NCBI GenBank assembly: GCA_965199715.1
Contig: OZ241322.1
Coordinates: 1,088,001-1,152,000 of the forward strand
Direction: 5' to 3'
Origin: Vicinamibacteria bacterium
GTDB taxonomy: Bacteria > Acidobacteriota > Vicinamibacteria > Marinacidobacterales > Marinacidobacteraceae
DNA: 64,000 nt
This document shows, one piece after another, positions 6,481 through 21,071 of this stretch. The number at the start of each line of letters is the position of its first letter. Position 1 is the stretch's first letter. A program made the translations under genes and the position numbers. The notes under the pieces were generated by a model, which ran no database searches, was not told where the DNA came from, and saw only the letters and a program-made list of their open reading frames with translations.

Positions 6481-7247
6481 GGATCGCGCTGGCCATCGCC
6501 CGCCGGGACCTCGGCGGGTGGTTCGCCTCGCCGATCGCGTTCGCGCTGCTCGGGGCGTTCGCGTTCCTCTACGGCTACTTCTTCACCGACTACCTGCGCG
6601 GGTTCGTCGAGGCCGGCATGCGGATGAGCCAGCTCGGCGGCTTCTCCGGCGGGACGCTGAACGTGAACAGCGACCTGATCCGCTGGCTCATGGCGAGCGC
6701 CGCCGTGCTCCTGGTCTTCCTGACGCCCCTCGTGACGATGCGCGGCGTGGCTTCGGAACTGCGCTCGGGAACCGTGGAGCTGCTGCTGACCGCGCCGGTG
6801 ACCGACGGGCAGATCGTGCTGGGGAAGTTCCTCGCGTCGTTCGCGCTCTTCGCGGCGATGATCGGTACCACCGGCTTCCACACGGCGATCCTGTTCTGGC
6901 ACTCGACGCCGGACGTCGCGCCGGTGCTGAGCGCCTATCTCGGCCTGCTGCTGCTCGGGGCCGCGTTCTGCTCGATCGGGCTCTTCTTCTCGACCCTCAC
7001 GAAGAGCCAGATCGTCGCCGGGATCCTCACGCTGCTCGCGCTGCTCGTGCTCTGGCTGCTGGAGTTCACCGGTCCCGAATCCGGCGGGTCCACGCCGCTG
7101 CTCGCGTACCTGTCCGCGACCGGGCACGTGGCCGACTTCACCCGGGGCGTGATCCCGACCCGCAGCGTCATCTTCTACCTGTCGTTCACGGCGTTCTGGC
7201 TGTTTCTCGCCCGCGAGTCGGTGCGCTCCCGGCGGTGGCGCGGATGA
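6477..7247 (+). CDS. ABC-2 type permease (GldF-like)
   Basis: Multiple TM helices, TMRGVASELRSGTVELLLTAPV...IVLGKF; ATGA overlap with the ATPase. Confidence 0.88.
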   Translation: MRIALAIARRDLGGWFASPIAFALLGAFAFLYGYFFTDYLRGFVEAGMRMSQLGGFSGGTLNVNSDLIRWLMASAAVLLVFLTPLVTMRGVASELRSGTVELLLTAPVTDGQIVLGKFLASFALFAAMIGTTGFHTAILFWHSTPDVAPVLSAYLGLLLLGAAFCSIGLFFSTLTKSQIVAGILTLLALLVLWLLEFTGPESGGSTPLLAYLSATGHVADFTRGVIPTRSVIFYLSFTAFWLFLARESVRSRRWRG

Positions 7248-8666: not shown

Positions 8667-9938
8667 GTGAAGCGCGGCACGCTGCTGGCGCTCGGCCTCG
8701 CGGCCGCGGTCGGGGGCTGGATCGCGCTGTTCGAGCGCGGCGAGCCCGACGCCGGGAACGACGACGCCGTCTTCGGGGTCGAGGTCGCGGACGTGGATGC
8801 GGTGCTGCTGGTTCGGCCCGGGGAGGCGGACGTCCGGCTGACCCGGGGCGGCGACGGGTTCACGGTCCGCGAGGGCGACGGTGAGCCGGCGCCGGCGGAT
8901 CCGGCGGAGGCGGACGAGCTCCTCCAGAACGTGGCGTCGCTGGCGTCCGGCCGCACGCTCGCCGGCGACGCGGCCGAGTTCGGGCTGGATCCGCCGGCGC
9001 TGTCGATCGCGGTCGTCGTCGGGGACGAGACCCTGACGGCCGCCCTCGGCGACGAGACGCTGACCGGCGGCAACCGCTACCTGCGCTTCGGGGACGCGCT
9101 CATGGTCACGCCCGAACGGGCGTTTCGGAACTTCGACCGGAGCGCGTGGGATCTGCGCGACCGCCGGGTGTTCCGGGGCGACCCGTCGGCGCGGGGGCTG
9201 CGGGTCGAGGCGGACGGCGCGCGAGCGGCGATGACCCGGGACGGCGGCGACTGGACCGTCACCGAGCCGTTCCGGCTGCGCGCCGATCCGTTCTCGGCGG
9301 CGCAACTCGCCGCGAACCTCCTCGACCTGCGGATGACCGCGCTCGCCCAAGGGGACGGCGACTTCGGATTCGCGACGCCCCGGCTCGCCGCGGAGATCAC
9401 GCTGGCCCGGGGCGAGGAGGTCGAGGCCCGGACCGTGGTCTTCGGCGCGGACCGGCCGCCAGGGGTGTTCGCGAGGGTGGAGGGCGATCCGCTCGTGTTC
9501 GTCGTGGCCGAAGAACCGGTGGAAGCGCTCGAGGAGGCGGCGCGCGACGGCCTCGAGTCGGTCCGCTCGCTGCGGCTCTTCGGGTTTTCGGTGTGGGACG
9601 TGGACGAGGCCCGCTTCGGCGAGACCGAGTTCGCGCGCAGCGAGACCGCCGAGGGAACCGAGTGGACGCTGGGCGGCGAGCCGGTGGACGCGAGCGCGGT
9701 GGAGGATCTGCTCTACCGGCTCAACTCGACCGACGCCGACGCGGTCGGCGACGAACCCGGCGACAGCGAGCCCGACTGGGTGCTGCGCGTCGGCGACGAG
9801 GAGGTGACGGTGCGCGTGGGCGAGGACGAGGTCCTGGCGCACCGGGCGGGCGACGAGCGGACGCTCGCGCTGTCGCGGGCGACGTGGGACGGAATCGTGG
9901 GGTTGCTGGAGGCCGCGTCCCGCCCGGCGGAGGAGTAG
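8667..9938 (+). CDS. DUF4340-type periplasmic protein
   Basis: N-terminal TM, repeated FGLDPP/FGFATP units, DLRDRRVF; follows gldG-like gene as is usual for this family. Confidence 0.75.
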   Translation: MKRGTLLALGLAAAVGGWIALFERGEPDAGNDDAVFGVEVADVDAVLLVRPGEADVRLTRGGDGFTVREGDGEPAPADPAEADELLQNVASLASGRTLAGDAAEFGLDPPALSIAVVVGDETLTAALGDETLTGGNRYLRFGDALMVTPERAFRNFDRSAWDLRDRRVFRGDPSARGLRVEADGARAAMTRDGGDWTVTEPFRLRADPFSAAQLAANLLDLRMTALAQGDGDFGFATPRLAAEITLARGEEVEARTVVFGADRPPGVFARVEGDPLVFVVAEEPVEALEEAARDGLESVRSLRLFGFSVWDVDEARFGETEFARSETAEGTEWTLGGEPVDASAVEDLLYRLNSTDADAVGDEPGDSEPDWVLRVGDEEVTVRVGEDEVLAHRAGDERTLALSRATWDGIVGLLEAASRPAEE

Positions 9939-9945
9939 GCGGGGG

Positions 9946-10338
9946 TCAGACCGGCGGGAAGAGGATCCGGCGAAATGTCGCGGTCGCGTAGCGGGTCGCC
10001 TCGTAGCGCTGGATCTGCTGCTGCGCGAGATCGAGACGGTCAGCGAGGTCTTTCCGGCTCAGGCCGGCGGCGATCCGCGCCTTGTCGAGGGCGTCCCCGA
10101 ATTCCGCGAGCGAGCTCGTCGGAATCCGCCCGAGGTTGGCGGAGCCGAGGCCCTCGTGCTCGCCCAGCTCCCTTCGAAGGTCGGCCGGAACGCTCTCCAT
10201 TCCCTCGCCTTCGGCTCGCAGCCACCGCGGATGGACGTCGGCGCGCTCGGGGGCGAAGGCGTGGAACTCCCGGATCGCCCGCTCGATCCGCCGCGCTTGG
10301 GTCCGGGTGATCCAGTACTGGCGCTGGTTCGCGATCAC
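9946..10338 (-). CDS. XRE-type HTH regulator/antitoxin, apparently 3'-truncated
   Basis: IANQRQYWIT N-terminus and ARIAAGLSRKDLADRLDLAQQQIQRYEATRY HTH; GGAGGG RBS before GTG; ends abruptly inside the HTH region. Confidence 0.65.
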   Translation of the reverse strand: MIANQRQYWITRTQARRIERAIREFHAFAPERADVHPRWLRAEGEGMESVPADLRRELGEHEGLGSANLGRIPTSSLAEFGDALDKARIAAGLSRKDLADRLDLAQQQIQRYEATRYATATFRRILFPPV

Positions 10339-10688
10339 GAGACGCCCTCCAGTCGGACGCGCACGACGCCCGACGAATGCAGGTGCGCCGACGACGGCGA
10401 GCGCAGTTTGCTGGCCGGTCAGGCTCGCCCGCAGGTCGTCGGCGCCGATGCGCGGGCGCCCGGGGCGTTCGGCCGGTCGAATCTGGCTCTCGTAATGGGC
10501 GGCCTCGCGACCGCCTTCGAATACCCGGTAGCGAACCTCCGCGTCACCGGTCGCGACGGCGATGATCGCGACGACGACTTCGGGCCTGGCGCGGAGCGTC
10601 GGGCATGGGAATCCGCGGGAGGTTATCCGAGAGATCGGACATTTTCCGTCACGCTTTCCAAGAAACGGCTGGTAACCTCGCGCCCCGC

Positions 10689-13673
10689 ATGGACAGTCCG
10701 GTCAAGGAGCACCACGAGCTACAGCCGATCCTCCACTCCCCCTACGACGAGCCCGACCGGCACTGGAAGCTGGTCGATCACCAGACGACCGGGGACATCG
10801 TCGATCGCCGCCGGCCCGCCGAGGAGCGCGCCCCGACCCGGCGGCGCCGGCAGAAGGCGCTGCTCGGGGACGACCAGGTGGGCGAGACCGGAACGACGCC
10901 CAGCCCCATCGACAACTTGCGCGCGGAGGTTCGAGAGTGGCGCCGCGCGCAGTGGCCGGGGGTCACCGGAAACACCCGCCGGCTGCTCGAGTACTGGGCG
11001 CGTCCGCCGGGCGAAGGGGCGTACCACAGCCCCTTCTTCGCCCAGCGCGAGGCCGTCGAGACGGTCGTGTACCTCACCGAGGCAGCCGACTCGAACCATG
11101 AGTGCGTGCGGCGCCTGAAGAAGCTCGGCGACGACTGGAGCGGGGGCCTCACCCGGCTCGCGATCCGCATGGCCACCGGCACCGGCAAGACCACGGTCAT
11201 GGCGATGCTGATCGCCTGGTACGCGGTCAACCGCCGCGCGGAGCACCGGGCGGGACGCGGACTCGCGCGCAACGTCGGCATCCTCGTCGTCATCGCCCCC
11301 GGCCGGACGATCTCGGGCCAACTTCGCCGCCGGCTCGACCCGCGCCGCGGCGACAGCCTGTACGACTCGGGCCGCCTGCTGCCGCGGGATCTGCGGCCCC
11401 GGCTCAACAACCTCCGGGTGACCGTCCTGAACTTCGAGAAGCTCCGGCCCCGCCCGGCCGTGGGACTGCGCTCCATCGAGATCGAGGGCAAGGAGGCCAT
11501 CGGCTGGGCGCGGGCCGAGGAGACGGCCGAAGTCCCCGAGACCTACGACCAGCTCTGGGACCGGCTGCTCGGCCGCGTGGACCCGCGGCACGGCGACCGG
11601 GTCGTGGTCCTGAACGACGAGGCCCACCACTGCTGGGAGCGCAAGGCGGGCGCGAAGAAGCGGCGCGACGGCAGCGACCAGGGGGTCTGGATGGAGGCCA
11701 TCCACGCGCTGGACGACCACCCGCGGTTCCGCGTCGCGCAGGCCATCGACCTGAGCGCCACGCCGTTCTTCATCGACCCGGCCAACACCCACGTTCCCCC
11801 GGACACGAGGATCCCGCGGCGGGATCCGCTGGTTCCGTGGATCGTGAGCGAGTTCGCGCTCACCGAGTCCATGGAGGCCGGCCTCGTCACGATCCCCACC
11901 CCGCCGCGGAAGACCGACGCCGCGGAGCCGGACGCGCTCCAGAACCTGTACGAGGACAACGGCGGCCGCAGCCTCGACTCCGCCGCGAACCGGAAGAAGG
12001 TGCTGAACGCGGCGCGCCTGCTCTACTCCGACTACGAGGCCACTTTCAGGGCGTGGAAGGAGCAGGGCGACCCCTCGATCGGGCGTCCGGTGCTCATCGT
12101 CATCGTGAACTCGAAGAAGAACGCGCGGGCGATGCTCGACATGCTGGGCGGCGCCCGCCGGGGGACCGAGGACGCCTGGGACATGCCGTCGGGGTTCGAT
12201 CTGCTCTCCAACGTGCCCCACAACGGCGCGACCGAGCAGGAGTGCCTCGCGCGGCCCGCCCGGACCATCCTCGTGTACAGCAAGGGCCAGGGCGCGGTCG
12301 AGAAGAGCGCCGACAGCCGCTTCGACCAGGGCGCGATCGGCGTCGAGGAGGTCAAGGACAGTCGCAAGCTGGAGGAGATCCTGCAGACGGTCGCCGAGCC
12401 GGGCCGCCCCGGCCAGCACGTGCGCTGCGTCGTGAGCATCGGCATGCTGACGGAGGGCTGGGACTGCCAGCGGGTCACCCACATCCTCGGCTACCGCAAG
12501 TTCGGCAGCCAGTTGCTGTGCGAGCAGACCACCGGGCGGGCGCTGCGGCGCCACGACTACGAGAACCGGATCGAGGTTCGCCGAAGCGACGACGGGAACG
12601 TGACCGAGCGGTTCGAGGCGACGTACGCGACGGTGCTGGGCGTGCCGTTCAAGAACTTCGGCCCGCCGCCGGGGCCGACCCCCGGAGTCGTCAAGCCGCG
12701 CCGCACGGTCCGCGCGGTCGAGGAGCGCCGGATCAGCCATCGCATCCGGGTTCCCGACCTGTGCGACTACAAGCTCGTCCACGACACGCCGACGATCAAG
12801 CTGGATCCCGACCGGGTGGGCGCGGCCAAGCTGGCCTCGAGCGGCGACCGGATCGAGATCACCTGGGCGAAGTGCCGCGGGCCGTTCGGCAAGGAGCGCG
12901 TGCTCAAGGCGGCTCCCGCCGGACGGCCGGACGCGGGGGCGTGGAAGCTGGCCGCCGATCTCGCGACCTGGCTCACGAGGCGTCGGAGCGACGACCTGCG
13001 CAGCGGCCGCCTCTTCGCGTCCTGCCTCGTCGCCGTGAGGGCGTGGCTCGCCCACGGGAAGGTCGAATGCGAGCGGCCCGAGGCGCTTCTCCACGACGAC
13101 GTCCGGCAGGAGGCGCTCCACCAGATCCTGCACGCGGTCGTGGACGACCGCGACGCGCCGATCCAGAAGGTCGGAATCGCGACCGACCCCAAGGCGCTGC
13201 GCCGCTCGGCGGGCGACTGGGGGCCGTTCCAGACCACGCTGACCAACGTCGCGGAGGTCGGCAACTCGGAACTCGACCTCGCCGCCTGCCACAACCATTT
13301 CGAGACCAGGATCGTGCGAGCGCTCGACAAGCACCCCAGGGTCGCCGCGGTCGTGCGCAACCACGGCCCCGAGCGGTTCGAGATCCCATACCGCAGCGGC
13401 GGACGGTGGGCGCGGTACGTCCCTGACTTCATCGTCCGCGCCGAGCCGATCGACGGGGTCACGCCGCACCTGATCGTCGAGGGCAAGGGGCCGCGGGACG
13501 GAAAGGCGGCGGACAAGGCGGCGTGGACGAGGGAGTGGTGGGTTCCCGCCGCGAATCACGCCGCCCGCGACGAGGGCGAGCCGGAGGCCCGATGGGGCTA
13601 TCTCGAGATCCGATCGCTCGAACGTCTCGACCAGCAGATCGAGGCGGGCGTCCGGAGGACCGCAGCGTCATGA
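10689..13673 (+). CDS. Type III-like restriction endonuclease subunit (SF2 helicase + PD-(D/E)xK nuclease; BPTD_3080-like)
   Basis: FAQREAVET, MATGTGKT, LNDEAHHC, DLSATP, MLTEGWD, QLLCEQTTGRALRR, C-terminal YVPDFIV...IVEGKG. Alternative start at 10605. Confidence 0.9.
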   Translation: MDSPVKEHHELQPILHSPYDEPDRHWKLVDHQTTGDIVDRRRPAEERAPTRRRRQKALLGDDQVGETGTTPSPIDNLRAEVREWRRAQWPGVTGNTRRLLEYWARPPGEGAYHSPFFAQREAVETVVYLTEAADSNHECVRRLKKLGDDWSGGLTRLAIRMATGTGKTTVMAMLIAWYAVNRRAEHRAGRGLARNVGILVVIAPGRTISGQLRRRLDPRRGDSLYDSGRLLPRDLRPRLNNLRVTVLNFEKLRPRPAVGLRSIEIEGKEAIGWARAEETAEVPETYDQLWDRLLGRVDPRHGDRVVVLNDEAHHCWERKAGAKKRRDGSDQGVWMEAIHALDDHPRFRVAQAIDLSATPFFIDPANTHVPPDTRIPRRDPLVPWIVSEFALTESMEAGLVTIPTPPRKTDAAEPDALQNLYEDNGGRSLDSAANRKKVLNAARLLYSDYEATFRAWKEQGDPSIGRPVLIVIVNSKKNARAMLDMLGGARRGTEDAWDMPSGFDLLSNVPHNGATEQECLARPARTILVYSKGQGAVEKSADSRFDQGAIGVEEVKDSRKLEEILQTVAEPGRPGQHVRCVVSIGMLTEGWDCQRVTHILGYRKFGSQLLCEQTTGRALRRHDYENRIEVRRSDDGNVTERFEATYATVLGVPFKNFGPPPGPTPGVVKPRRTVRAVEERRISHRIRVPDLCDYKLVHDTPTIKLDPDRVGAAKLASSGDRIEITWAKCRGPFGKERVLKAAPAGRPDAGAWKLAADLATWLTRRRSDDLRSGRLFASCLVAVRAWLAHGKVECERPEALLHDDVRQEALHQILHAVVDDRDAPIQKVGIATDPKALRRSAGDWGPFQTTLTNVAEVGNSELDLAACHNHFETRIVRALDKHPRVAAVVRNHGPERFEIPYRSGGRWARYVPDFIVRAEPIDGVTPHLIVEGKGPRDGKAADKAAWTREWWVPAANHAARDEGEPEARWGYLEIRSLERLDQQIEAGVRRTAAS

Positions 13674-16247
13674 GCAAGACCCCGGACGCCTGGGAGCACG
13701 GCGGCAAGCGCCCGAACAACCCCACCCAGGAAATCGTGGAGACCGCGAAGCCGCGGCGGAGCCGCCAGCACGCGAAGGACGTCCGGGCGCGCAGCGACGC
13801 CGAGCCCACGCTGCGCTGGAAGCGCTCCCGCGAGACGAAGACCGCGGCCGCGCCGATGCTCATGCGGGCCGAGCAGATCGACCCCGAGGCGTGGGTCACG
13901 ACCCTGAAGCGGGTGCGCGAGCAGGGCGACCTGTTCGCCCCGTTCAACGCCTTCCGGGAGCCCGGATCGGCGACGCTCGACTGGTACCAGCACGCCGGCA
14001 ACTGGTCGAACCGGCTCATCCACGCCGACGCCCGGCGGGCGATGGCGTCGCTGCTGGAGCACGAGCACGCCGCCGGCTCGGTGCAGATGTGCTTCTTCGA
14101 TCCGCCCTACGGCATGGACTTCGACGCAAGGTTCGGCAACGACACGATCCAGCGGCGGGCGTTCGTGGACACCTACGAGAAGGGCGTCCACTCGTATCTC
14201 GACGGAATCCGCGAGACCGCGATCCTCGCCCGGGAGCTGCTGACCGAATCGGGCAGCCTGTTCATGCAGATCGGCGACGTGAACGTCCACCGCTGCGCGA
14301 TGGTGCTGGACGAGGTGTTCGGGCCGGAGAACCGGGTGACGACGATCACGATGGCGACGACCGGCGGCGGCAGCAGCACCAAGTCGATCGCGAAGGCGGG
14401 CGACTACCTCCTCTGGTACGCGAAGGACCGCGAGGAAATGGCCTTCCAGGCGCTCTACGAGGAGCAGGACGTCGAGGCGTGGTGCGATGGCCAGACTTTT
14501 GCGGGGGGGGGGGGATTTCCCTGATGGAACGCGTCGAGCGCTGAGGCCCGAGGAGCGGCGAGACCCAAAGCGGAATCTCCCGGAAGGCACTGTCCTTTGG
14601 GCGATGCGAACGTTGTTGTCGCAGGGGCCTTCCAGCGGCGAACAGGGCCAACCGTTCACGTGGAACGGAATTCAGTTCGGCCCGCGAGGACTCGAAAAGG
14701 ACCAGTGGCGTGTGGATCGCGCCGGCCTCGAGGCCCTCGCCACTGCAGATCGCTTCTGGACAGCGGTGAAGCCAGGGACCCAGACGGCGCGAGCCGCTCA
14801 ACTCCAGCTACGGATTCTTAGGTCGGAAATGGCGGGCCGACGCCTCAACAACGTCTGGGCCCGGCAGATCGCCGCGACCGACAAGCGTTATCCCGTCCAG
14901 ACGGGGGATCTCGCCATCCAGCGCTGCATGCTGATGACGACCAAGCCGGGCGACCTCGTGCTCGATCCGACCGGTGGCAGCGGCACGACGGCGGTGGTCG
15001 CCGAGGAGTGGGGCCGGCGCTGGATCGCGATCGACAGTTCCCGGGAGAGCCTCGCCGTCGCCCGGGAGCGCGTGCTCGTGCGCGAGTACCCGGCGCATCT
15101 CCTGATCGGAAGCGCCGCCGGGTTCGCCCGGGAGAACGCGCTGCGCCACGCCGCGGGTCAGGAGCCGCTCGCCGGGCGGCCCCACGGCTCCCGCGATCCC
15201 GCCACCGGGATCGTCGTGGGCCGGACGCCCTACGTGAGCGCCGCCACGCTCGCCTACCGGGACCGGCCCGACAAGGCCCGAACGCGCGACGTCACGTGGT
15301 TCGCGGACCGTCCCGACGGCGGCAAGAAGGGCGGCCGGATCGCGAGCCGGTTCACCGTCGAGACCGAGCACCTCGAGCAATACCGCAGCCCCGAGGAGCT
15401 TCTCAGCCCCCGCGAGCGGCGTCGGCAGGCGGACTGGAACGAGCGCGTCCTGCGCATGCTCGGCGACAAGGGCGTCGGCTCGAACGAGGGAACCCGCTGG
15501 ACGCTCGAGGACATCGAGAACGTCGCCGACCGGCAACCCGAGAGCCGCCCCGGCGCGATCAGCCACCGCTGCCGTCTGATCGACCACGCCACCGGCGCGG
15601 CGAAGGACTGCGTCATCGCCATCTGGCCGCAGGACGCCAAGGTCGGCGTGGGCAACATCCAGCGCAACGTCCGCGAGGCGATCAGCCAGCACGTCGGCGG
15701 CGACGACCTCGCGCTGATCGTCGTGGGCGCGGAGATCGACGGCGGCTCGCACCAGTCGCTCGACGGCGGCCGGTGGCAAATCCCCGTCGCCCGCATCGAG
15801 GCGGGGGCCGAGCTGCATCTGAAGGAGACCCGGCGCAAGGCCGGCGACTCCGAGTCGGCGCTGCTTCTGGTCGCGGAGCCGGACGTGGAGGTCGAGGACG
15901 CCGGCGACGGGAAGCGCCGGGTCGCCGTCAAGGGCTGGCACCAGTTCAACCCGGTGACCGGCGAGTCGGACTTCTACGCCGCCGACCACATCCGCATGTG
16001 GCTGCTGGACACCGACTACAACGGGACCGAATTCTGCGCCCGCCGCATCCACCTAAGCGCGAAGCTGCGCGCGAAGGAGAACCGGAAGGTGCTCCAGAGG
16101 GTCCTCGGGCGCAAGGGCGACCCGGACGCGATCCGCGCGGTGTTCGGCTCCCGCAGCGAACCGTTCCCCGCGCCCGAGCAGGGCGAGATCGCCGTGCGCC
16201 TGATCGTCGGGAACGGGAGCGTCCTGAGCTGGCACGGCCCGGCTTAG
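13670..16247 (+). CDS. Site-specific DNA methyltransferase (type III Mod-like, beta class), frameshifted at a G12 tract
   Basis: The 5' part 13670-14524 has WSNRLIHAD and FFDPPYG; the 3' frame has RYPVQT, PGDLVLDPTGGSGTTAVVAEEWGRRWIAID and WLLDTDYNG. Removing one G at 14503-14514 joins both into an 858-aa ORF. ATGA overlap with res. Confidence 0.88.
14503..14514 (+). repeat. Poly-G homopolymer (G12) inside the methyltransferase gene
   Basis: Sequence reads ACTTTTGC-G12-ATTTCCCTGA; it is the longest homopolymer noticed in the window. Confidence 0.95.
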
Positions 16248-16309
16248 GGCCGGGAGCCTCGCCGCCCTTCTTCACGCCTACAGTTTGACAATCCGGGTAA
16301 CCTTCCGGT

Positions 16310-17056
16310 GTGGCTGCGACGACGCGAAGCTTCCAAGGCGGCGCAGTGACGGACCCGGCCCGCCCCGTCGACGACAGCGGCTCTGGATTCGAACTCATTG
16401 AGCTGTCAGTGGTTTTCGCAACCACGTCGAACAACCCGTCAATCATCAATCCGGATTTTCTCGCTCGCGCCGGAATCGTGGGCGAGGACTCGCCACTTAG
16501 CGGTGACCCCATCACTACTCCGGTGTTCTCACTGGTGAAGTACCAAACAGGCCTCGCCGTGCAAGCCGATCCTGAACGGGTCGTGTTGACGGAATCCCCG
16601 AATACTGGGAACCGGGTTGGCGCCCGGTGCGCACGGATGGCGTCGACATACGCGCAGGCGGTCCCGCACGTGGCGTACCGAGGAATCGGCGTCAATCCGA
16701 AGTTCTTTTTCCACCTCGTCCCGACAGTTCAGGCGGAGATGGCCCGACTGCTGCATGAGCGCGGCGGTTGGCTGGAGTTCAAGGATTGCGAACCCACGGT
16801 GCAGCTCAAGGCGGTTTACGCACTCGACGCTCGCCAGATCACTGTCGATGCGAGCGCCGCCACAAGACGCTTGGGGCAAGGGGCCGAGCAGCGCGGTTTG
16901 CTAGTCCAGTGCAACGTGCACCGGGAGCTCACCGGTGACGCCGAGGAGCGGGCAGACGCCATGGCAACGATTCTTGAGCGGTGGGAGCGCGACATGAAGG
17001 ACTGCCGAGAAGTGGCGCGGCGCTTCGCCGGTCGCCTTCAGCAGGAGGCCCAGTGA
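16310..17056 (+). CDS. Hypothetical protein (cassette gene 1; possibly TIGR04255-like)
   Basis: Globular 248-aa ORF with NNPSIINPDFL and PHVAYRGIGVNP motifs; AT-richer codons; stop overlaps the next start (GTGA). The start may be the GTG near 16337. Confidence 0.7.
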   Translation: MAATTRSFQGGAVTDPARPVDDSGSGFELIELSVVFATTSNNPSIINPDFLARAGIVGEDSPLSGDPITTPVFSLVKYQTGLAVQADPERVVLTESPNTGNRVGARCARMASTYAQAVPHVAYRGIGVNPKFFFHLVPTVQAEMARLLHERGGWLEFKDCEPTVQLKAVYALDARQITVDASAATRRLGQGAEQRGLLVQCNVHRELTGDAEERADAMATILERWERDMKDCREVARRFAGRLQQEAQ

Positions 17057-17826
17057 ACGAGACGCCGCTCCAGTCGCCAACGAAACGCCGACTGGTCGCA
17101 ACCACGGCTCTCCTGACGGGAGATTTCGGCGAACGCGCTGACGCGACCAGGCCGCCAAGCTTCCCTGAGGAGGCCTTCTTGGCGGCGGAGGTGCGTGTCC
17201 CCTACGTCGTGCGTGCCGACCGAGTCCTGGTGCGGCGGGGTGGGCAGAATGCGACTTCGAGTATGCATGAGAATTTTTGGGCGGGGCTCGTTTCGTCCGG
17301 CAGTGCCGTCGGCGAGTTCGATAGCCCACTGCGCGAGTTCCACACCAACACCCTGAAGCCGGCGTTGAACGTTCTCACGCTTCTGGCACTCGTCAAGGCA
17401 ACCCAAGCCGAGCACACCCGCGGCATGGCCGGAATGCCGGACGCCACCGCCGCTCCGGACGCGAACGCGGACCTGCGAGCCGCCCTGATCGACCTTGATG
17501 AAGCGTCGGACGAGGCGCGAGAGGAAGGGTTCCCAGCGCTTTCCGAGAGGGCTCTAGGCGACGCCAGACGCCTGCTGAAGGACCTCTACCGTATGCACCC
17601 TTGCCGACTTGAGGTCTATCCGACGCCCGATGCCGAGATCGCTCTCGTGGCGCCCGGCGGGGACGATAGATCCGTGATGGTGTTGTGCGCTTCGGATGGC
17701 GGCGCTCTATGCACAGTCAACATTGACGGGAGACTCCGATACGCACGGTACCCAAGCGCCGCCAGGCTCCCGGACGGCTTTGTCCGTGAAGGCATGCGGG
17801 ACTTGGTCCGAGCGAGATCGCATTGA
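17053..17826 (+). CDS. Hypothetical protein (cassette gene 2)
   Basis: AGGAGG RBS then GTG at 17053; C-terminal domain EEGFPALSERALGDARRLL...EVYPTPDAEIAL. Confidence 0.65.
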   Translation: MNETPLQSPTKRRLVATTALLTGDFGERADATRPPSFPEEAFLAAEVRVPYVVRADRVLVRRGGQNATSSMHENFWAGLVSSGSAVGEFDSPLREFHTNTLKPALNVLTLLALVKATQAEHTRGMAGMPDATAAPDANADLRAALIDLDEASDEAREEGFPALSERALGDARRLLKDLYRMHPCRLEVYPTPDAEIALVAPGGDDRSVMVLCASDGGALCTVNIDGRLRYARYPSAARLPDGFVREGMRDLVRARSH

Positions 17827-18254
17827 CGCAGGCGCCGACGGCGATCCATGCCGCTGAGCAGCTTGGACGCGGGGTTTTCTCCGCCAAGGACGCGAAGCGG
17901 GCTGCCCGTTCCAAGATTCCACATCGGGTGTTCCTTACGAAGCCCGGGGTTGTACGCATTTCAGTAGACAGGCTGAATTTGGCTTCCGCGTCGGAAATCG
18001 TCACACTGGCCATCGACCGGGCCGAGAATCGACCGGGACGATTCCATGGCTGGGCCGTCTTGAGCGTGGACAAGGCGATCCGCAAGGGGCGACGCGTCGA
18101 GTCCACACCGGCAGAGGGAAATCCGCATCACGCCGACATCGTGCTTCCCGATCCCGCACGCGAGGATCGGGACGCTCAGATCGCACACGCGAGGGATATG
18201 GCTGACGCATCGAATTGGAAGCCGCGACCTGAAGCGACTTCAAGAGACTCGTGA
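17823..18254 (+). CDS. Hypothetical protein (cassette gene 3; possible ADP-ribosyltransferase-like fold)
   Basis: 143 aa, TTGA overlap with gene 2; EQLGRGVF...ISVDR...GWAVL...GNPHHADI pattern. Confidence 0.65.
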   Translation: MTQAPTAIHAAEQLGRGVFSAKDAKRAARSKIPHRVFLTKPGVVRISVDRLNLASASEIVTLAIDRAENRPGRFHGWAVLSVDKAIRKGRRVESTPAEGNPHHADIVLPDPAREDRDAQIAHARDMADASNWKPRPEATSRDS

Positions 18255-18355
18255 TTCACGCTCGCGAGTGATAGCGGCCACGGCTGTCCTCAAGCGGGCA
18301 CCGGAAAAGCAGGACCGGGTTCTGCGCCCGTCGCAAGCGACGACCGACCACGGCG

Positions 18356-18595
18356 TCACGGCCCCTCGTCGCGCTTCTCTCGAAAGAACTCCCCGGCGGG
18401 CTGTCCGAGCGAGGGCATCGTGGCCCGGAAGCGCGCCAGATCTTCAACCGCCACGGGTTTCTTGGGGCGAGCTACGGCGGTGAGTCTCGCCACAGTCTTG
18501 CCCCGCCGCGTGATCAGAATGTCCTCACCGGCCTCAACGCGGTTCACGATCTCGCTGAGACGAGCCCTCGCGGCGGAAACGCTGATGGTCGTCAC
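18356..18595 (-). CDS. Phd/YefM family antitoxin (copy A)
   Basis: TTISVSAARARLSEIVNRVEAGEDILITRRGKTVARL. Confidence 0.88.
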   Translation of the reverse strand: MTTISVSAARARLSEIVNRVEAGEDILITRRGKTVARLTAVARPKKPVAVEDLARFRATMPSLGQPAGEFFREKRDEGP

Positions 18596-19051
18596 GAGAA
18601 TGCGTGGCCCTGCCAGCTCATGGCGATCGGGCCCGCCGTCGTCGGGAGTTCGAGCATTTCGCCGGCGATGAGCATCCCCTTGTCCAAGGTGTAGATGGCG
18701 GCGGCATCGTGATTTCGGGCGATCGCAAGGTGAAGCGCGTCACCCGCTCGCAGCCCGGTCTCGAAGTACCCGAGCCAACTCGCTGCTAACCGGAAATCGT
18801 CCTCCGTCGGGGTCAGTCGAACGAAGGAGTCCCGAACCATGCCTCGTAGCGGGCGCTTACGGCATGGGCCGCCGGGCCGTCAAGCTGGCCCATGCAACCT
18901 CGCGCGCAAACGTAGAGGCAACTTCAACCCCGGTCCAGTCGCTGACCGCAAGTCCCCCCACGCACGGAGCCGCGAAGAACTCAGCTATCGCGAAGCTGTG
19001 GGCTTCGTCCAAGAACAGCGGAACCAGGAAACTCGTGTCGAAGTAGCGCAT
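18592..19051 (-). pseudogene. vapC: VapC (PIN domain) toxin, frameshifted
   Basis: N-half YFDTSFLVPLF...EVAS (18857-19051) and C-half LRAGDALHLAIA...YTLDK (18592-18840) are in different frames; a third frame between them reads MGQLDGPAAHAVSARYEA. Confidence 0.82.
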
Positions 19052-19069
19052 TCGACAGCCCGCGGGACC

Positions 19070-19309
19070 TCACCTTCCCTCGTCGCGCATCTCGCGGATG
19101 AGCTCCGCCGACGGTCGGCGCAGGCGTGGCATCGAAGTCCGAAAGCGCTCCAGTTCCTTGAGCGGCAGCGGTTTCTTGGGACGGAGCACGGCGGTGAGCC
19201 GGATTGGCTGCTTGCCCCGGCGAGTGATGACGACATCCTGCGCGTCCGCAAGCTTGTCCAAGACTTCGTCGAGGCGCACCTTCGCCCGATTGAGACTGAT
19301 CGTGAACAT
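19070..19309 (-). CDS. Phd/YefM family antitoxin (copy B, cognate position upstream of vapC)
   Basis: AKVRLDEVLDKLADAQDVVITRRGKQPIRL...LERFRTSMPRLRRPSAELIREMRDEGR. Confidence 0.85.
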   Translation of the reverse strand: MFTISLNRAKVRLDEVLDKLADAQDVVITRRGKQPIRLTAVLRPKKPLPLKELERFRTSMPRLRRPSAELIREMRDEGR

Positions 19310-19355
19310 CGGAACCTACCCCCAAGGGCGAGGAGTCTAGCGAGGACGGGGGCGC

Positions 19356-19589
19356 TCAGCTCTCCTCGTCGGACACTTCCGGCTCGCGCTCCCCCGACGG
19401 CCGGCGTCGCATCGAGGCCCGGAGCTTGGCCAGTTCCTCGAGCGGCGGCGGCTCCTTGGGACCGAGCACCGCCTTCACGTGCACGGACTCCTTGCCGCGG
19501 CGGGTGATGACCACGTCCTCCCCCTCGGCGAGCTTGTCGAGAATCTCCTCAGGGCGCGACTTCGCCTTCGTGTACGTGATCGTGAACAT
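19356..19589 (-). CDS. Phd/YefM family antitoxin (copy C)
   Basis: MFTITYTKAKSRPEEILDKLAEGEDVVITRRGKE; paralogous to copy B, with starts 280 bp apart; GGAGG RBS. Confidence 0.78.
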   Translation of the reverse strand: MFTITYTKAKSRPEEILDKLAEGEDVVITRRGKESVHVKAVLGPKEPPPLEELAKLRASMRRRPSGEREPEVSDEES

Positions 19590-19640
19590 CGAGAACCTCC
19601 CTACCGCAGAAGGATGCTAGCGAGGGCCGAATGCGCCGGT

Positions 19641-19700
19641 TCACCGCCCCTCGCCCCGGATCTCCCGAAAGAACTCCCCGGCCGACTGCCGGGGTGAGGG
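19641..19700 (-). pseudogene. C-terminal remnant of a fourth Phd-type antitoxin
   Basis: Manual translation PSPRQSAGEFFREIRGEGR* matches the ends of copy A (PSLGQPAGEFFREKRDEGP*) and copy B (PSAELIREMRDEGR*). Confidence 0.7.
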
Positions 19701-19796
19701 CGCTCCGGGTAGTTCCCGAGTTGACATTTTTCAGGGGGGATTTCGGAGCAAGGCAGGGGCGAACCACGACGCCGCCCGGCCGACAGGGAGGCCCCG

Positions 19797-20183
19797 ATGC
19801 GAAATCTGGTGATTGCGGTGGCCGGCGTGGTCGCGGTGGGCGCGCTGGCGCTCGGGCTGGCCCGTTGCGACGCTGGCCCCGCCAACCGGCAGGCGGGTGC
19901 GGCGGGCGGCGCCGGCGCGGCCCCTTCCCGGCCTCCCATCCGTGCGGTGACCCCGGAAGACTTCACCATGGAACGCGTGTCGGAGTGGCTGGCCCGGCTC
20001 CATGACGCGGGCATCATTTCGGCTGAATGCTTGCCGCGTTTCACGCGAATCACGCCGGTGTGCGCGACAACGGGCCGAGGCGGACGATTGGAACGGCGAT
20101 GTGGTGGCTCGGCGTGGTTGGGTACTCCGTCCTCTCCGGACTGCTCGGCATGGACGGCGTGCTCCCCTATGGGCTCGCCTTGA
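19797..20183 (+). CDS. Hypothetical exported protein (possibly degenerate)
   Basis: GGGAGG RBS and hydrophobic signal-like N-terminus; the C-terminal half looks unconvincing. Confidence 0.4.
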   Translation: MRNLVIAVAGVVAVGALALGLARCDAGPANRQAGAAGGAGAAPSRPPIRAVTPEDFTMERVSEWLARLHDAGIISAECLPRFTRITPVCATTGRGGRLERRCGGSAWLGTPSSPDCSAWTACSPMGSP

Positions 20184-20293
20184 CGATCGTGGGAATCCTC
20201 GTCGTCATCGACTGGGGCGATCTGATCCGAAACGTGCGGCGTCGGATTTCTCCGCAGACCGAGTTTCCTGCGGTATGGCGGCGCTCGGGGTGA
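20099..20293 (+). CDS. Small hypothetical membrane protein
   Basis: MWWLGVVGYSVLSGLLG...LALTIVGILVVIDW, two hydrophobic stretches; overlaps the previous ORF. Confidence 0.3.
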   Translation: MWWLGVVGYSVLSGLLGMDGVLPYGLALTIVGILVVIDWGDLIRNVRRRISPQTEFPAVWRRSG

Positions 20294-20333
20294 CTCTCGT
20301 GGGCGTGCGGCGACCCGAACGCCGCCCGGGGCA

Positions 20334-21071
20334 CTACGGCGTGACCGTCAGCTCCACGATCCGGTCCTCCCCGAGGAAGCTGTCGTCGTTGTGGAAGTAC
20401 CAGCGCCGGTTCGCCGGGAGGCGCAGGCCACCGTCCTCGGCCTCCTCGCTCAGGTGGATGTACTCGCCGTCGTTCGCCGCCTCGTCGTGGTAGAAGCGGT
20501 AGCCGATCATCCGGGCGGTCTCGGGGTGGAAGTAGAAGTACCAGATGTCCCCGCCCTCGTAGTGGACCCGGACCTTCTGCGCGTCCTGCCCGTCGTAGGC
20601 CTCCGCGACCGGAGCGTCCGCGATGATGGCCCCGGGATCGCGCAGCTTCATGGGAAGCCCGTACAGGTACAGGTAGTAGTTCCGAAGTCGCATCACGGTC
20701 GCCTCGTCGATCCCGGCCTCCGCGAACGCTTCCTCGGTGAGATCGGCGTTCCCATCGACCGAGCGGGCGACCACCTGCTCGCCCTCGACCTCGATGCGGA
20801 CGGTTCCGTTCTCGGTCTCGCGGCTGGCCTCCATGGTCCGCCCGCCGCGCCCGAACCTGAGCGTCGTCACCCGGTCGGTTCCGCCGGGCCGCGACTCCTC
20901 AAGGCGGAGCGTGATCTCGGCGCTCCCCCAGACCCCCTCGGGATCGTGGTGCGCAATCGAACGCTCGATCAGGGCTTCCGCATCCGACATCGCCGGCGGG
21001 GGCGGCGCGGCCGGCTCCTCCGGCGGCGGGGCGCCGCAGGCGAGCGCGGCGAGCAGTGGCAAATAACGCAT
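20334..21071 (-). CDS. Lipoprotein, DUF6503-like
   Basis: MRYLPLLAALAC lipobox; SIAHHDPEGVW, RNYYLYLYGLPMKLRDPGA, DIWYFYF; GGAGG RBS. Confidence 0.75.
   Translation of the reverse strand: MRYLPLLAALACGAPPPEEPAAPPPPAMSDAEALIERSIAHHDPEGVWGSAEITLRLEESRPGGTDRVTTLRFGRGGRTMEASRETENGTVRIEVEGEQVVARSVDGNADLTEEAFAEAGIDEATVMRLRNYYLYLYGLPMKLRDPGAIIADAPVAEAYDGQDAQKVRVHYEGGDIWYFYFHPETARMIGYRFYHDEAANDGEYIHLSEEAEDGGLRLPANRRWYFHNDDSFLGEDRIVELTVTP

Follow-up and report, generated by a model that had tools for sequence, protein, structure and literature searches.

A twelve-G tract as a likely slippage switch in the methyltransferase gene of a predicted Type III-like restriction-modification system

Introduction

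Is a DNA methyltransferase gene that is interrupted at a run of twelve G residues broken, misassembled, or switched off? The question is raised by a pair of genes, res and mod, in a 64,000-nucleotide stretch of a Vicinamibacteria bacterium genome (contig OZ241322.1 of assembly GCA_965199715.1, positions 1,088,001 to 1,152,000; hereafter the window). In this window mod, the methyltransferase gene of a predicted Type III-like restriction-modification (RM) system, is split at a G12 homopolymer. Stochastic switching of RM systems is textbook knowledge for a few host-adapted pathogens and, to our knowledge, is hardly documented for uncultured symbionts. An initial reading of the locus made from the DNA letters and their open reading frames (the sequence-only reading) had proposed that the run is an ON/OFF switch, that the system is a phasevarion or a switchable defence, and that it belongs to a lineage and an RM subfamily from which its author knew of no described case. 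Here we report on how these proposals fared when the tract was compared with related loci, database proteins and sequencing reads. We conclude that G12 is probably a slipped-strand ON/OFF switch of mod and that it is OFF in the assembled sequence.

The window's genome comprises 2.66 Mb in two contigs and has a GC content of 71.5%. The host is probably a sponge-associated acidobacterium. The C-terminal part of its RpoB aligned over its full length with those of two Vicinamibacterales metagenome-assembled genomes (MAGs) at 65–66% identity, compared with 57–59% identity, and in pieces only, for three genomes from other phyla.

Results and Discussion

The mod gene is split at a single homopolymer

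Twelve G's occupy positions 14503–14514 of the window. The frame from the ATG at 13670 reads ...TTT GCG GGG GGG GGG GGA TTT CCC TGA through this tract and stops at 14522–14524 after 284 residues. The +1 frame is open from 14340 to 16247, and its first ATG, at 14487, would give a protein of 586 residues. Removal of one G joins the two parts into a gene of 2577 nt, that is, 858 codons and a stop. The lengths that keep the gene in frame are G11, G14, G17 and G20 (3n+2), and G12 and G13 are out of frame. The sequence-only reading had stated that either G11 or G14 restores a protein of 858 residues, which is correct for G11; the G14 product has 859 residues.

A read-through proxy of 858 residues (P0004), identical to the G11 product except for R in place of A278, was used for the comparisons of the whole protein. 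It aligned end to end (residues 1–858) with full-length homologues of 855–875 residues, at up to 77% identity, and based on this alignment G12 is the only lesion in mod. The two halves of mod hold complementary parts of PF01555 (N6_N4_Mtase), covering positions 1–123 and 132–219 of the 221 in the model, and both passed the gathering threshold of 26.7 bits with scores of 49.3 and 54.9 bits. No second lesion was found in the 858 codons of mod or the 1022 codons of res. Together with the near-complete coverage of a restriction endonuclease family model by Res described below, these data bear out the initial view that mod is broken only at G12 and the TGA that follows it, both halves and res being otherwise intact. 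The initial description of the codon usage was also accurate, as GGC accounts for 53 of the 75 Gly codons of mod outside the tract (the others are GGG 13, GGA 7 and GGT 2).

The GC content of third codon positions (GC3) is not uniform along mod, being 0.67–0.80 at about 14390–14840 and at least 0.92 elsewhere. This central segment, which includes the tract, may represent a recombination import from a lower-GC allele, and the tract may have arrived in the window's genome with it by recombination between phyla. Sliding DNA identity against ten orthologous loci identified no donor that was closer in the segment than elsewhere.

Mod and Res have the features of a Type III-like system

The genes res and mod are adjacent on one strand and overlap as ATGA, the stop of res and the start of mod. 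Their order, res then mod, is the reverse of the classical Type III arrangement and is the same in 13 of 14 close loci, that is, wherever the res query (P0003) matched; L021, the fourteenth, had no res match.

In Mod, the DPPY motif at residue 144 precedes the DPTGGSGTT motif at residue 432, which is the order of beta-class methyltransferases, and the best PADLOC model was that of the Type III methyltransferases (MTase_III, PDLC03632, 6.4e-93). The C-terminal part of the protein, about 380 residues from about residue 480 to 858, has no Pfam family. By sequence, Mod is remotely related to the Mod subunit of EcoP15I (4ZCF, E 9.4e-6). An AlphaFold model of an orthologue that is 77% identical (P0005; mean pLDDT 74.4) had as its best matches in the PDB, searched with Foldseek, the Type III Mod subunits 6K0W and 4ZCF (E about 5e-16), and 7DSU was also matched. 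In this model the Gly run encoded by the tract is part of a coil segment that connects a helix to a strand.

The Res protein carries the motifs GTGKT (192), DEAH (338), TEGWD (616), QTTGR (641), PDF (940) and EGK (959), i.e., those of an SF2 ATPase with a C-terminal PD...ExK nuclease motif, as in Type III Res subunits. It matched the Pfam family ResIII (PF04851, 2.3e-8), and it aligned with positions 3–967 of the 970 in NF046055, the BPTD_3080 family restriction endonuclease (571.9 bits, E 2.5e-171). As this score is below the curated equivalog cut-off of 800 bits, Res is a relative of that family rather than an equivalog. The match to the REase_III model of PADLOC was weak (3.7e-4), and a sequence search of the PDB with Res returned no match. 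Based on the motifs of both proteins and the predicted fold of the Mod orthologue, we call this putative two-gene RM system Type III-like.

The G12 run is not a product of chance

Runs of G or C in the genome become about ten-fold rarer with each added base, there being 741 of length 6, 73 of length 7 and 8 of length 8. Extrapolation of this decay predicts about 0.1 runs of at least 10 bases, and the genome has five, of 10–15 bases. The G12 run is therefore not a chance occurrence.

Two of the five, G12 and a C10 run, each interrupt the frame of an RM gene. The C10 run (L004:5961–5970) splits an MmeI-family Type IIG gene (L004:3477–6262; G000:C1:2253476–2256261). The N, helicase-spacer, methyltransferase (MTase) and TRD domains of this gene share one frame and the MmeI_C domain (3.1e-28) is in another, just after the run; the gene would be in frame at C11 or C8. 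It looks like a second candidate switch, which is also out of frame. The other three runs are a C14 (L001:4070–4083) that is followed by G7 in an intergenic hairpin between convergent genes, a C12 (L003:3989–4000), also intergenic, that immediately follows the stop codon of a homocitrate-synthase-like gene and has an aconitase gene downstream, and a C15 (L002:4053–4067; G000:C1:1697352) beside an insertion sequence (IS) integrase gene. This last run is in DNA without coding periodicity, and an attempt to assign it to a gene gave none.

Related loci carry the tract at the same codons in both phases

The Gly run specified by the tract belongs to a conserved segment, QTFA-GGG(G)-DFPDG, in which homologues have 3 to 6 Gly residues. 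We compared the 18 loci of the close subfamily in which the site could be read in the DNA (the window, L009–L021, L052 and L109–L111). A run of G11 to G20 is present at the identical codons in six of them, and both phases are represented: the frame is kept in L014 (G12), L016 (G12), L018 (G20) and L109 (G11) and lost in the window (G12) and L019 (G12). An alphaproteobacterial locus, L020, reads TTTGCG and G6 and then continues into unrelated DNA (L020:5830–5850), such that the C-terminal half of mod is missing. The remaining eleven loci have mixed Gly codons or no run at the site. About 21% of the Gly codons in the genes of the close subfamily are GGG; with codons treated as independent, about 1% of loci would be expected to have three GGG in succession. 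Since the Gly run is in a predicted coil and homologues have between 3 and 6 Gly, in-frame changes in its length are likely to be tolerated.

When the C-terminal parts were placed on a tree, tract alleles turned up in each of the three clades of the subfamily, a scattered pattern that indicates either retention with repeated loss or repeated gain. A more distant subfamily (31–45% identity, mostly Acidimicrobiia) had no Gly run at the site. The closest orthologues are in MAGs labelled Pseudomonadales, Vicinamibacterales, Alphaproteobacteria, Verrucomicrobiae and Poriferihabitaceae, a spread over phyla that fits horizontal transfer. No close orthologue was found among 40 relatives of the host, in which the best match had 41% identity (this tally includes an unpublished genome, G033, on which no result rests). 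A metagenome scan found just three close-subfamily loci, L109–L111, and no conspecific copy was found there or in the 40 relatives. The sequence-only reading had put forward a comparison of tract lengths among conspecific genomes as a check; among orthologues the lengths were G11, G12 and G20.

Out-of-frame alleles were also evident among database proteins. We inspected the best 34 hits to the N-terminal piece (P0001) that had the length of this half. Six of these derail directly after ...F[AS]GGG (P0125, P0127, P0128, P0134, P0135 and P0147), a further two stop precisely at GGG, and one was ambiguous. Among 12 short hits to the whole protein, eight are C-terminal halves that start at the first Met after the site. 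One of these, P0087, is the OFF allele of L019 and was verified in the DNA, the only C-terminal half checked at that level; the other seven are suggestive.

Reads over the tract and the quality of the assembly

Nine sequencing runs from three studies hold the stretch, and these are labelled either "sponge metagenome" or as one of two coded organisms. Four of them (X1, X8, X10 and X11), which are not from the source sample of the assembly, were compared over 13600–16300, with read variants in fewer than three reads not listed. From X1, which belongs to another study, a 278-nt contig at a depth of 97 covers 14306–14584 and has one G fewer, i.e., G11, and is otherwise identical to the window. In the raw Illumina reads of X11, two of the six reads that span the tract lack one G, and the other four were not listed with an insertion or deletion. 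The single spanning read of X10 had no deletion. These data show that G11 exists in near-identical DNA of other samples, and X11 hints at a mixture of lengths within one sample, at a depth too low for a firm claim about a single population. Accurate reads had been named at the outset as a check, and the sequences compared here revealed G11 in the X1 contig and in two X11 reads, against G12 in the window, with few spanning reads in X11 and from samples other than the source.

In X11 the depth was about 9 just before the tract, about 1–4 after it (14510–15050), and recovered near 15150. This drop may reflect a central segment that is divergent in most strains, or poor sequencing past the G run.

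The strongest competitor to a switch is an assembly artefact, which we nevertheless consider unlikely. According to this explanation the true run is G11, the gene is ON, the long-read consensus was miscounted, and the run reflects codon choice in a poly-Gly linker. The only independent sequence of high depth, the X1 contig, indeed has G11, the second RM gene with a long tract, the C10 run, is likewise one base out of frame, one gene of the assembly is split at a run of only 6 nt, and many of the related records are, judging by their titles, long-read MAG assemblies. Shorter runs of the same assembly were examined as well. Frame changes across G/C runs of 6 and 7 nt were found genome-wide at 15.6% and 20%, respectively, compared with 9.7% at random positions. 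When 13 of these candidates were checked with Pfam, one was a truly split gene. In nine, the families on the two sides differed or only one side had a family, the pattern expected where one gene ends and another begins, and three gave no basis for a decision (L101, L103 and L108). The split gene has a LigD Prim-Pol domain in two parts (Pfam positions 1–73 and 70–254 of 254) at a 6-nt run (L097; G000:C1:15431–15436), and represents either a real frameshift or a consensus error. Homopolymer errors are thus not rife in the assembly at short runs, which says little about runs of 10–12 bases. Also at odds with an artefact are the four of six spanning reads in X11 that were not listed as lacking a G, and the loss of frame at this very position in L019 and in six database proteins, which come from other assemblies. 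Furthermore, even if G12 were a miscall, a G11 run at a site where runs of 11 to 20 bases have been kept across lineages would remain prone to slippage.

That mod is simply a pseudogene, with a frameshift at a mutational hot spot in a decaying system and no useful reversible switching, appears more improbable still. Some orthologues have decayed: mod is interrupted by about 2 kb of inserted DNA in L017 and L052, breaks off within the tract in L020, and is partial and frameshifted in L021, where there is no long run. In the window, by contrast, neither gene has a second lesion, GC3 is high over most of mod, and the in-frame G11 allele is present in near-identical DNA of another sample. Least probable, and by some distance from being likely, is that G12 cells make some full-length Mod through RNA-polymerase slippage or ribosomal frameshifting, with tract length tuning the level, since length differences were seen directly in the DNA, even though long homopolymers can cause transcriptional slippage in bacteria.

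A model for switching of the system

We propose that the G run is a hypermutable simple-sequence tract, or contingency locus, whose length slipped-strand mispairing during replication would change by one base at a time. At G11, G14 or G17 a full-length methyltransferase would be made, its Gly loop tolerating 3–6 Gly, and at G12 or G13 translation would end 8 nt after the tract. The Res subunit of classical Type III enzymes needs Mod to find DNA, and by analogy the Res of this system may have the same need. If so, switching of mod would switch methylation and restriction together. Cells in the OFF phase would not be harmed, and the population would consist of defended cells and undefended cells that are permissive to DNA. 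The rate of switching and any benefit of it are likewise features that we infer. With res intact, a switchable defence is a simpler reading than a phasevarion. A regulatory role of the latter kind is possible and found no support here. The core of the initial proposal, an ON/OFF switch in a Type III-like mod gene that was assembled at its OFF length, is supported by the phases of the orthologues, the G11 samples and the second split RM gene.

Several observations weigh against a switch. The read evidence is thin, with spanning depths of 6 in X11 and 1 in X10, and in X8 the contigs break inside the tract at a depth of 2.5–3 and are uninformative on its length. G12 in the window could be a homopolymer miscall of G11; that both tract-bearing RM genes are out of frame fits a miscall or a switch alike. 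No RNA sequencing runs that hold the stretch were found (0). The dependence of Res on Mod is argued from enzymes to which the sequence similarity is remote. A long run is absent from the site in 12 of the 18 loci and so a switch is not essential to the family. In addition, the genomes of L014, L016, L018 and L019 contain dozens to hundreds of G/C runs of at least 10 bases. The counts of overlapping ten-mer matches were 110 in G046 (L014), 333 in G047 (L016), 828 in G044 (L018) and 104 in G048 (L019), and in G047 there were at least 45 distinct tracts among the plus-strand matches listed. In these genomes the run at the site is less special and could partly result from mutational bias. Lastly, mutS and mutL are present and uninterrupted in the window's genome, so a repair defect would not be boosting slippage.

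Comparison with known switches and Type III systems

The G tract in pglX of the Streptomyces coelicolor Pgl system was reportedly described by Sumby and Smith in 2003. In the portion of a later account used here, the Streptomyces Pgl system is switched by this tract at frequencies of 1e-2 to 1e-4 (PMC4365076). The pglX gene resembles the mod gene studied here in being a defence MTase gene with a poly-G run in a high-GC, non-pathogenic bacterium, its tract turning defence on and off at high frequency. It differs in belonging to another defence system, of the BREX type and without a nuclease, in its MTase family, and in that its switching has been shown experimentally.

Simple sequence repeats (SSRs) have been reported in 662 of 3805 (17.4%) Type III mod genes in REBASE, environmental bacteria included, and G[n] tracts in modH, modJ and modL of H. 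pylori and modU of C. upsaliensis, according to the parts of that survey consulted (PMC5909438). As given there, mononucleotide tracts count from at least nine bases, a length that G12 exceeds inside the mod open reading frame (ORF), and phase variation is recognized from tract lengths and frames that differ among strains, as those of the present tract do among orthologues and samples, at low read depth. Within the same parts of the survey, the phase-variable mod genes share with ours a G run of at least nine bases that sets the frame of the ORF, a beta-class N6-adenine MTase accompanied by a Res helicase-nuclease, and tract alleles in both ON and OFF phases. The present system differs from them in its remote sequence relation, its res to mod order, its Mod of 858 residues with the uncharacterised C-terminal part of about 380 residues, the position of the tract mid-gene in a conserved Gly loop, and its uncultured sponge-associated hosts from several phyla.

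With EcoP15I (4ZCF) the system shares the two genes for Mod and Res, the fold of the Mod orthologue model, and the GTGKT, DEAH and C-terminal PD...ExK motifs of Res. EcoP15I has no SSR and has mod before res, whereas here there is a tract, res comes first, and Res is without a sequence match in the PDB.

It is thus well known that Type III mod genes can be switched by poly-G tracts; what is unfamiliar here is the gene family and the sponge-symbiont habitat. The initial claim of novelty was overstated, as SSRs in Type III mod genes of environmental bacteria and a G tract in the high-GC pglX were already on record. A limited literature collection contained no paper on the BPTD_3080 family name and none connecting phase variation or homopolymeric contingency loci with sponge symbionts.

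Tracts in other sponge-associated loci

The mod tract is found again in Acidobacteriota-like, alphaproteobacterial and Poriferihabitaceae genomes, and other positions of res and mod carry tracts in Acidimicrobiia, in Arenicellales and in a Cenarchaeum MAG. These occurrences led us to the tentative idea, which we hold with less than even confidence, that homopolymeric G/C tracts are a contingency strategy for RM genes shared across the sponge microbiome, with stochastic defence at the population level as in host-adapted pathogens. In 93 loci, the density of G/C runs of at least 9 bases was 36 per Mb in res, 47 in mod and 33 in other DNA, which is no clear gene-specific enrichment with the classes set by tblastn extents. 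Eight of the runs classed as other are close to the matched start of a gene, at distances from 3 nt inside it to 235 nt upstream.

Individual tracts were observed in several arrangements. A C9 is present where res changes frame in L011 (2905–2913) and a G11 where mod changes frame in L055 (6557–6567). In Aldehydirespirator-type loci, runs lie just before the matched start of mod (C9 at L034:4952–4960, C12 at L036:4955–4966 and C11 at L056:4974–4984). Two Arenicellales loci have C11 after the ATG at the start of res (L055:2050–2060 and L070:2048–2058), L067 has a G26 inside mod (6702–6727), and in the Cenarchaeum-labelled MAG a G14 (L049:1571–1584) is 159 nt upstream of res.

Sponges filter large volumes of seawater. 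If their symbionts' defences are phase-variable, symbiont populations would always hold some cells that are open to foreign DNA and some that are protected. This would matter for horizontal transfer between sponge symbionts; for mod itself, the closest orthologues are found in other phyla. It would also bear on the annotation of MAGs, in which genes split by a switch are called pseudogenes. Sponge symbionts are described as rich in defence systems in the part of PMC11410982 consulted. On its own, the mod locus would be a solid but ordinary example of known slippage switching.

Layout of the locus

The features of the locus are given in Table 1.

Table 1. Positions in the window of res, mod and the features of the split gene.
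Feature	Position	Strand	Description
res	10605..13673	+	Predicted Type III-like restriction subunit of 1022 aa; uninterrupted
mod	13670..16247	+	Predicted beta-class N6-adenine DNA methyltransferase; 858 codons at G11
N-terminal frame at G12	13670..14524	+	284 aa with motif IV (DPPY), ending ...QTFAGGGGFP*; PF01555 1-123 of 221
G12 homopolymer, proposed slippage switch	14503..14514	+	Encodes the Gly run of QTFA-GGG(G)-DFPDG
Premature TGA of the G12 frame	14522..14524	+	8 nt past the tract
C-terminal frame (+1 relative to the N-terminal part)	14514..16247	+	Motif I (DPTGGSGTT) and the C-terminal part

A scan of 9900–16700 for promoters and terminators identified nothing that exceeded shuffled sequence. 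Just upstream of res, and divergent from it, a small ORF on the minus strand (9946–10338) encodes a helix-turn-helix domain (HTH_3, 3.9e-7). This could be a controller-type regulator of res and mod, or unrelated to them. Downstream of mod, the GC content of 16250–20500 is lower (0.58–0.68), and the ORFs of this region had no match in Pfam, NCBIfam or PADLOC. Together with res and mod, the region may form an accessory island that is missing from the three genomes of the same genus that were searched. The genome also has a second mod paralogue (G000:C1:1545317–1547653), which aligns with mod in two stretches at 42% and 31% identity and is an intact open frame of 849 residues without a long homopolymer.

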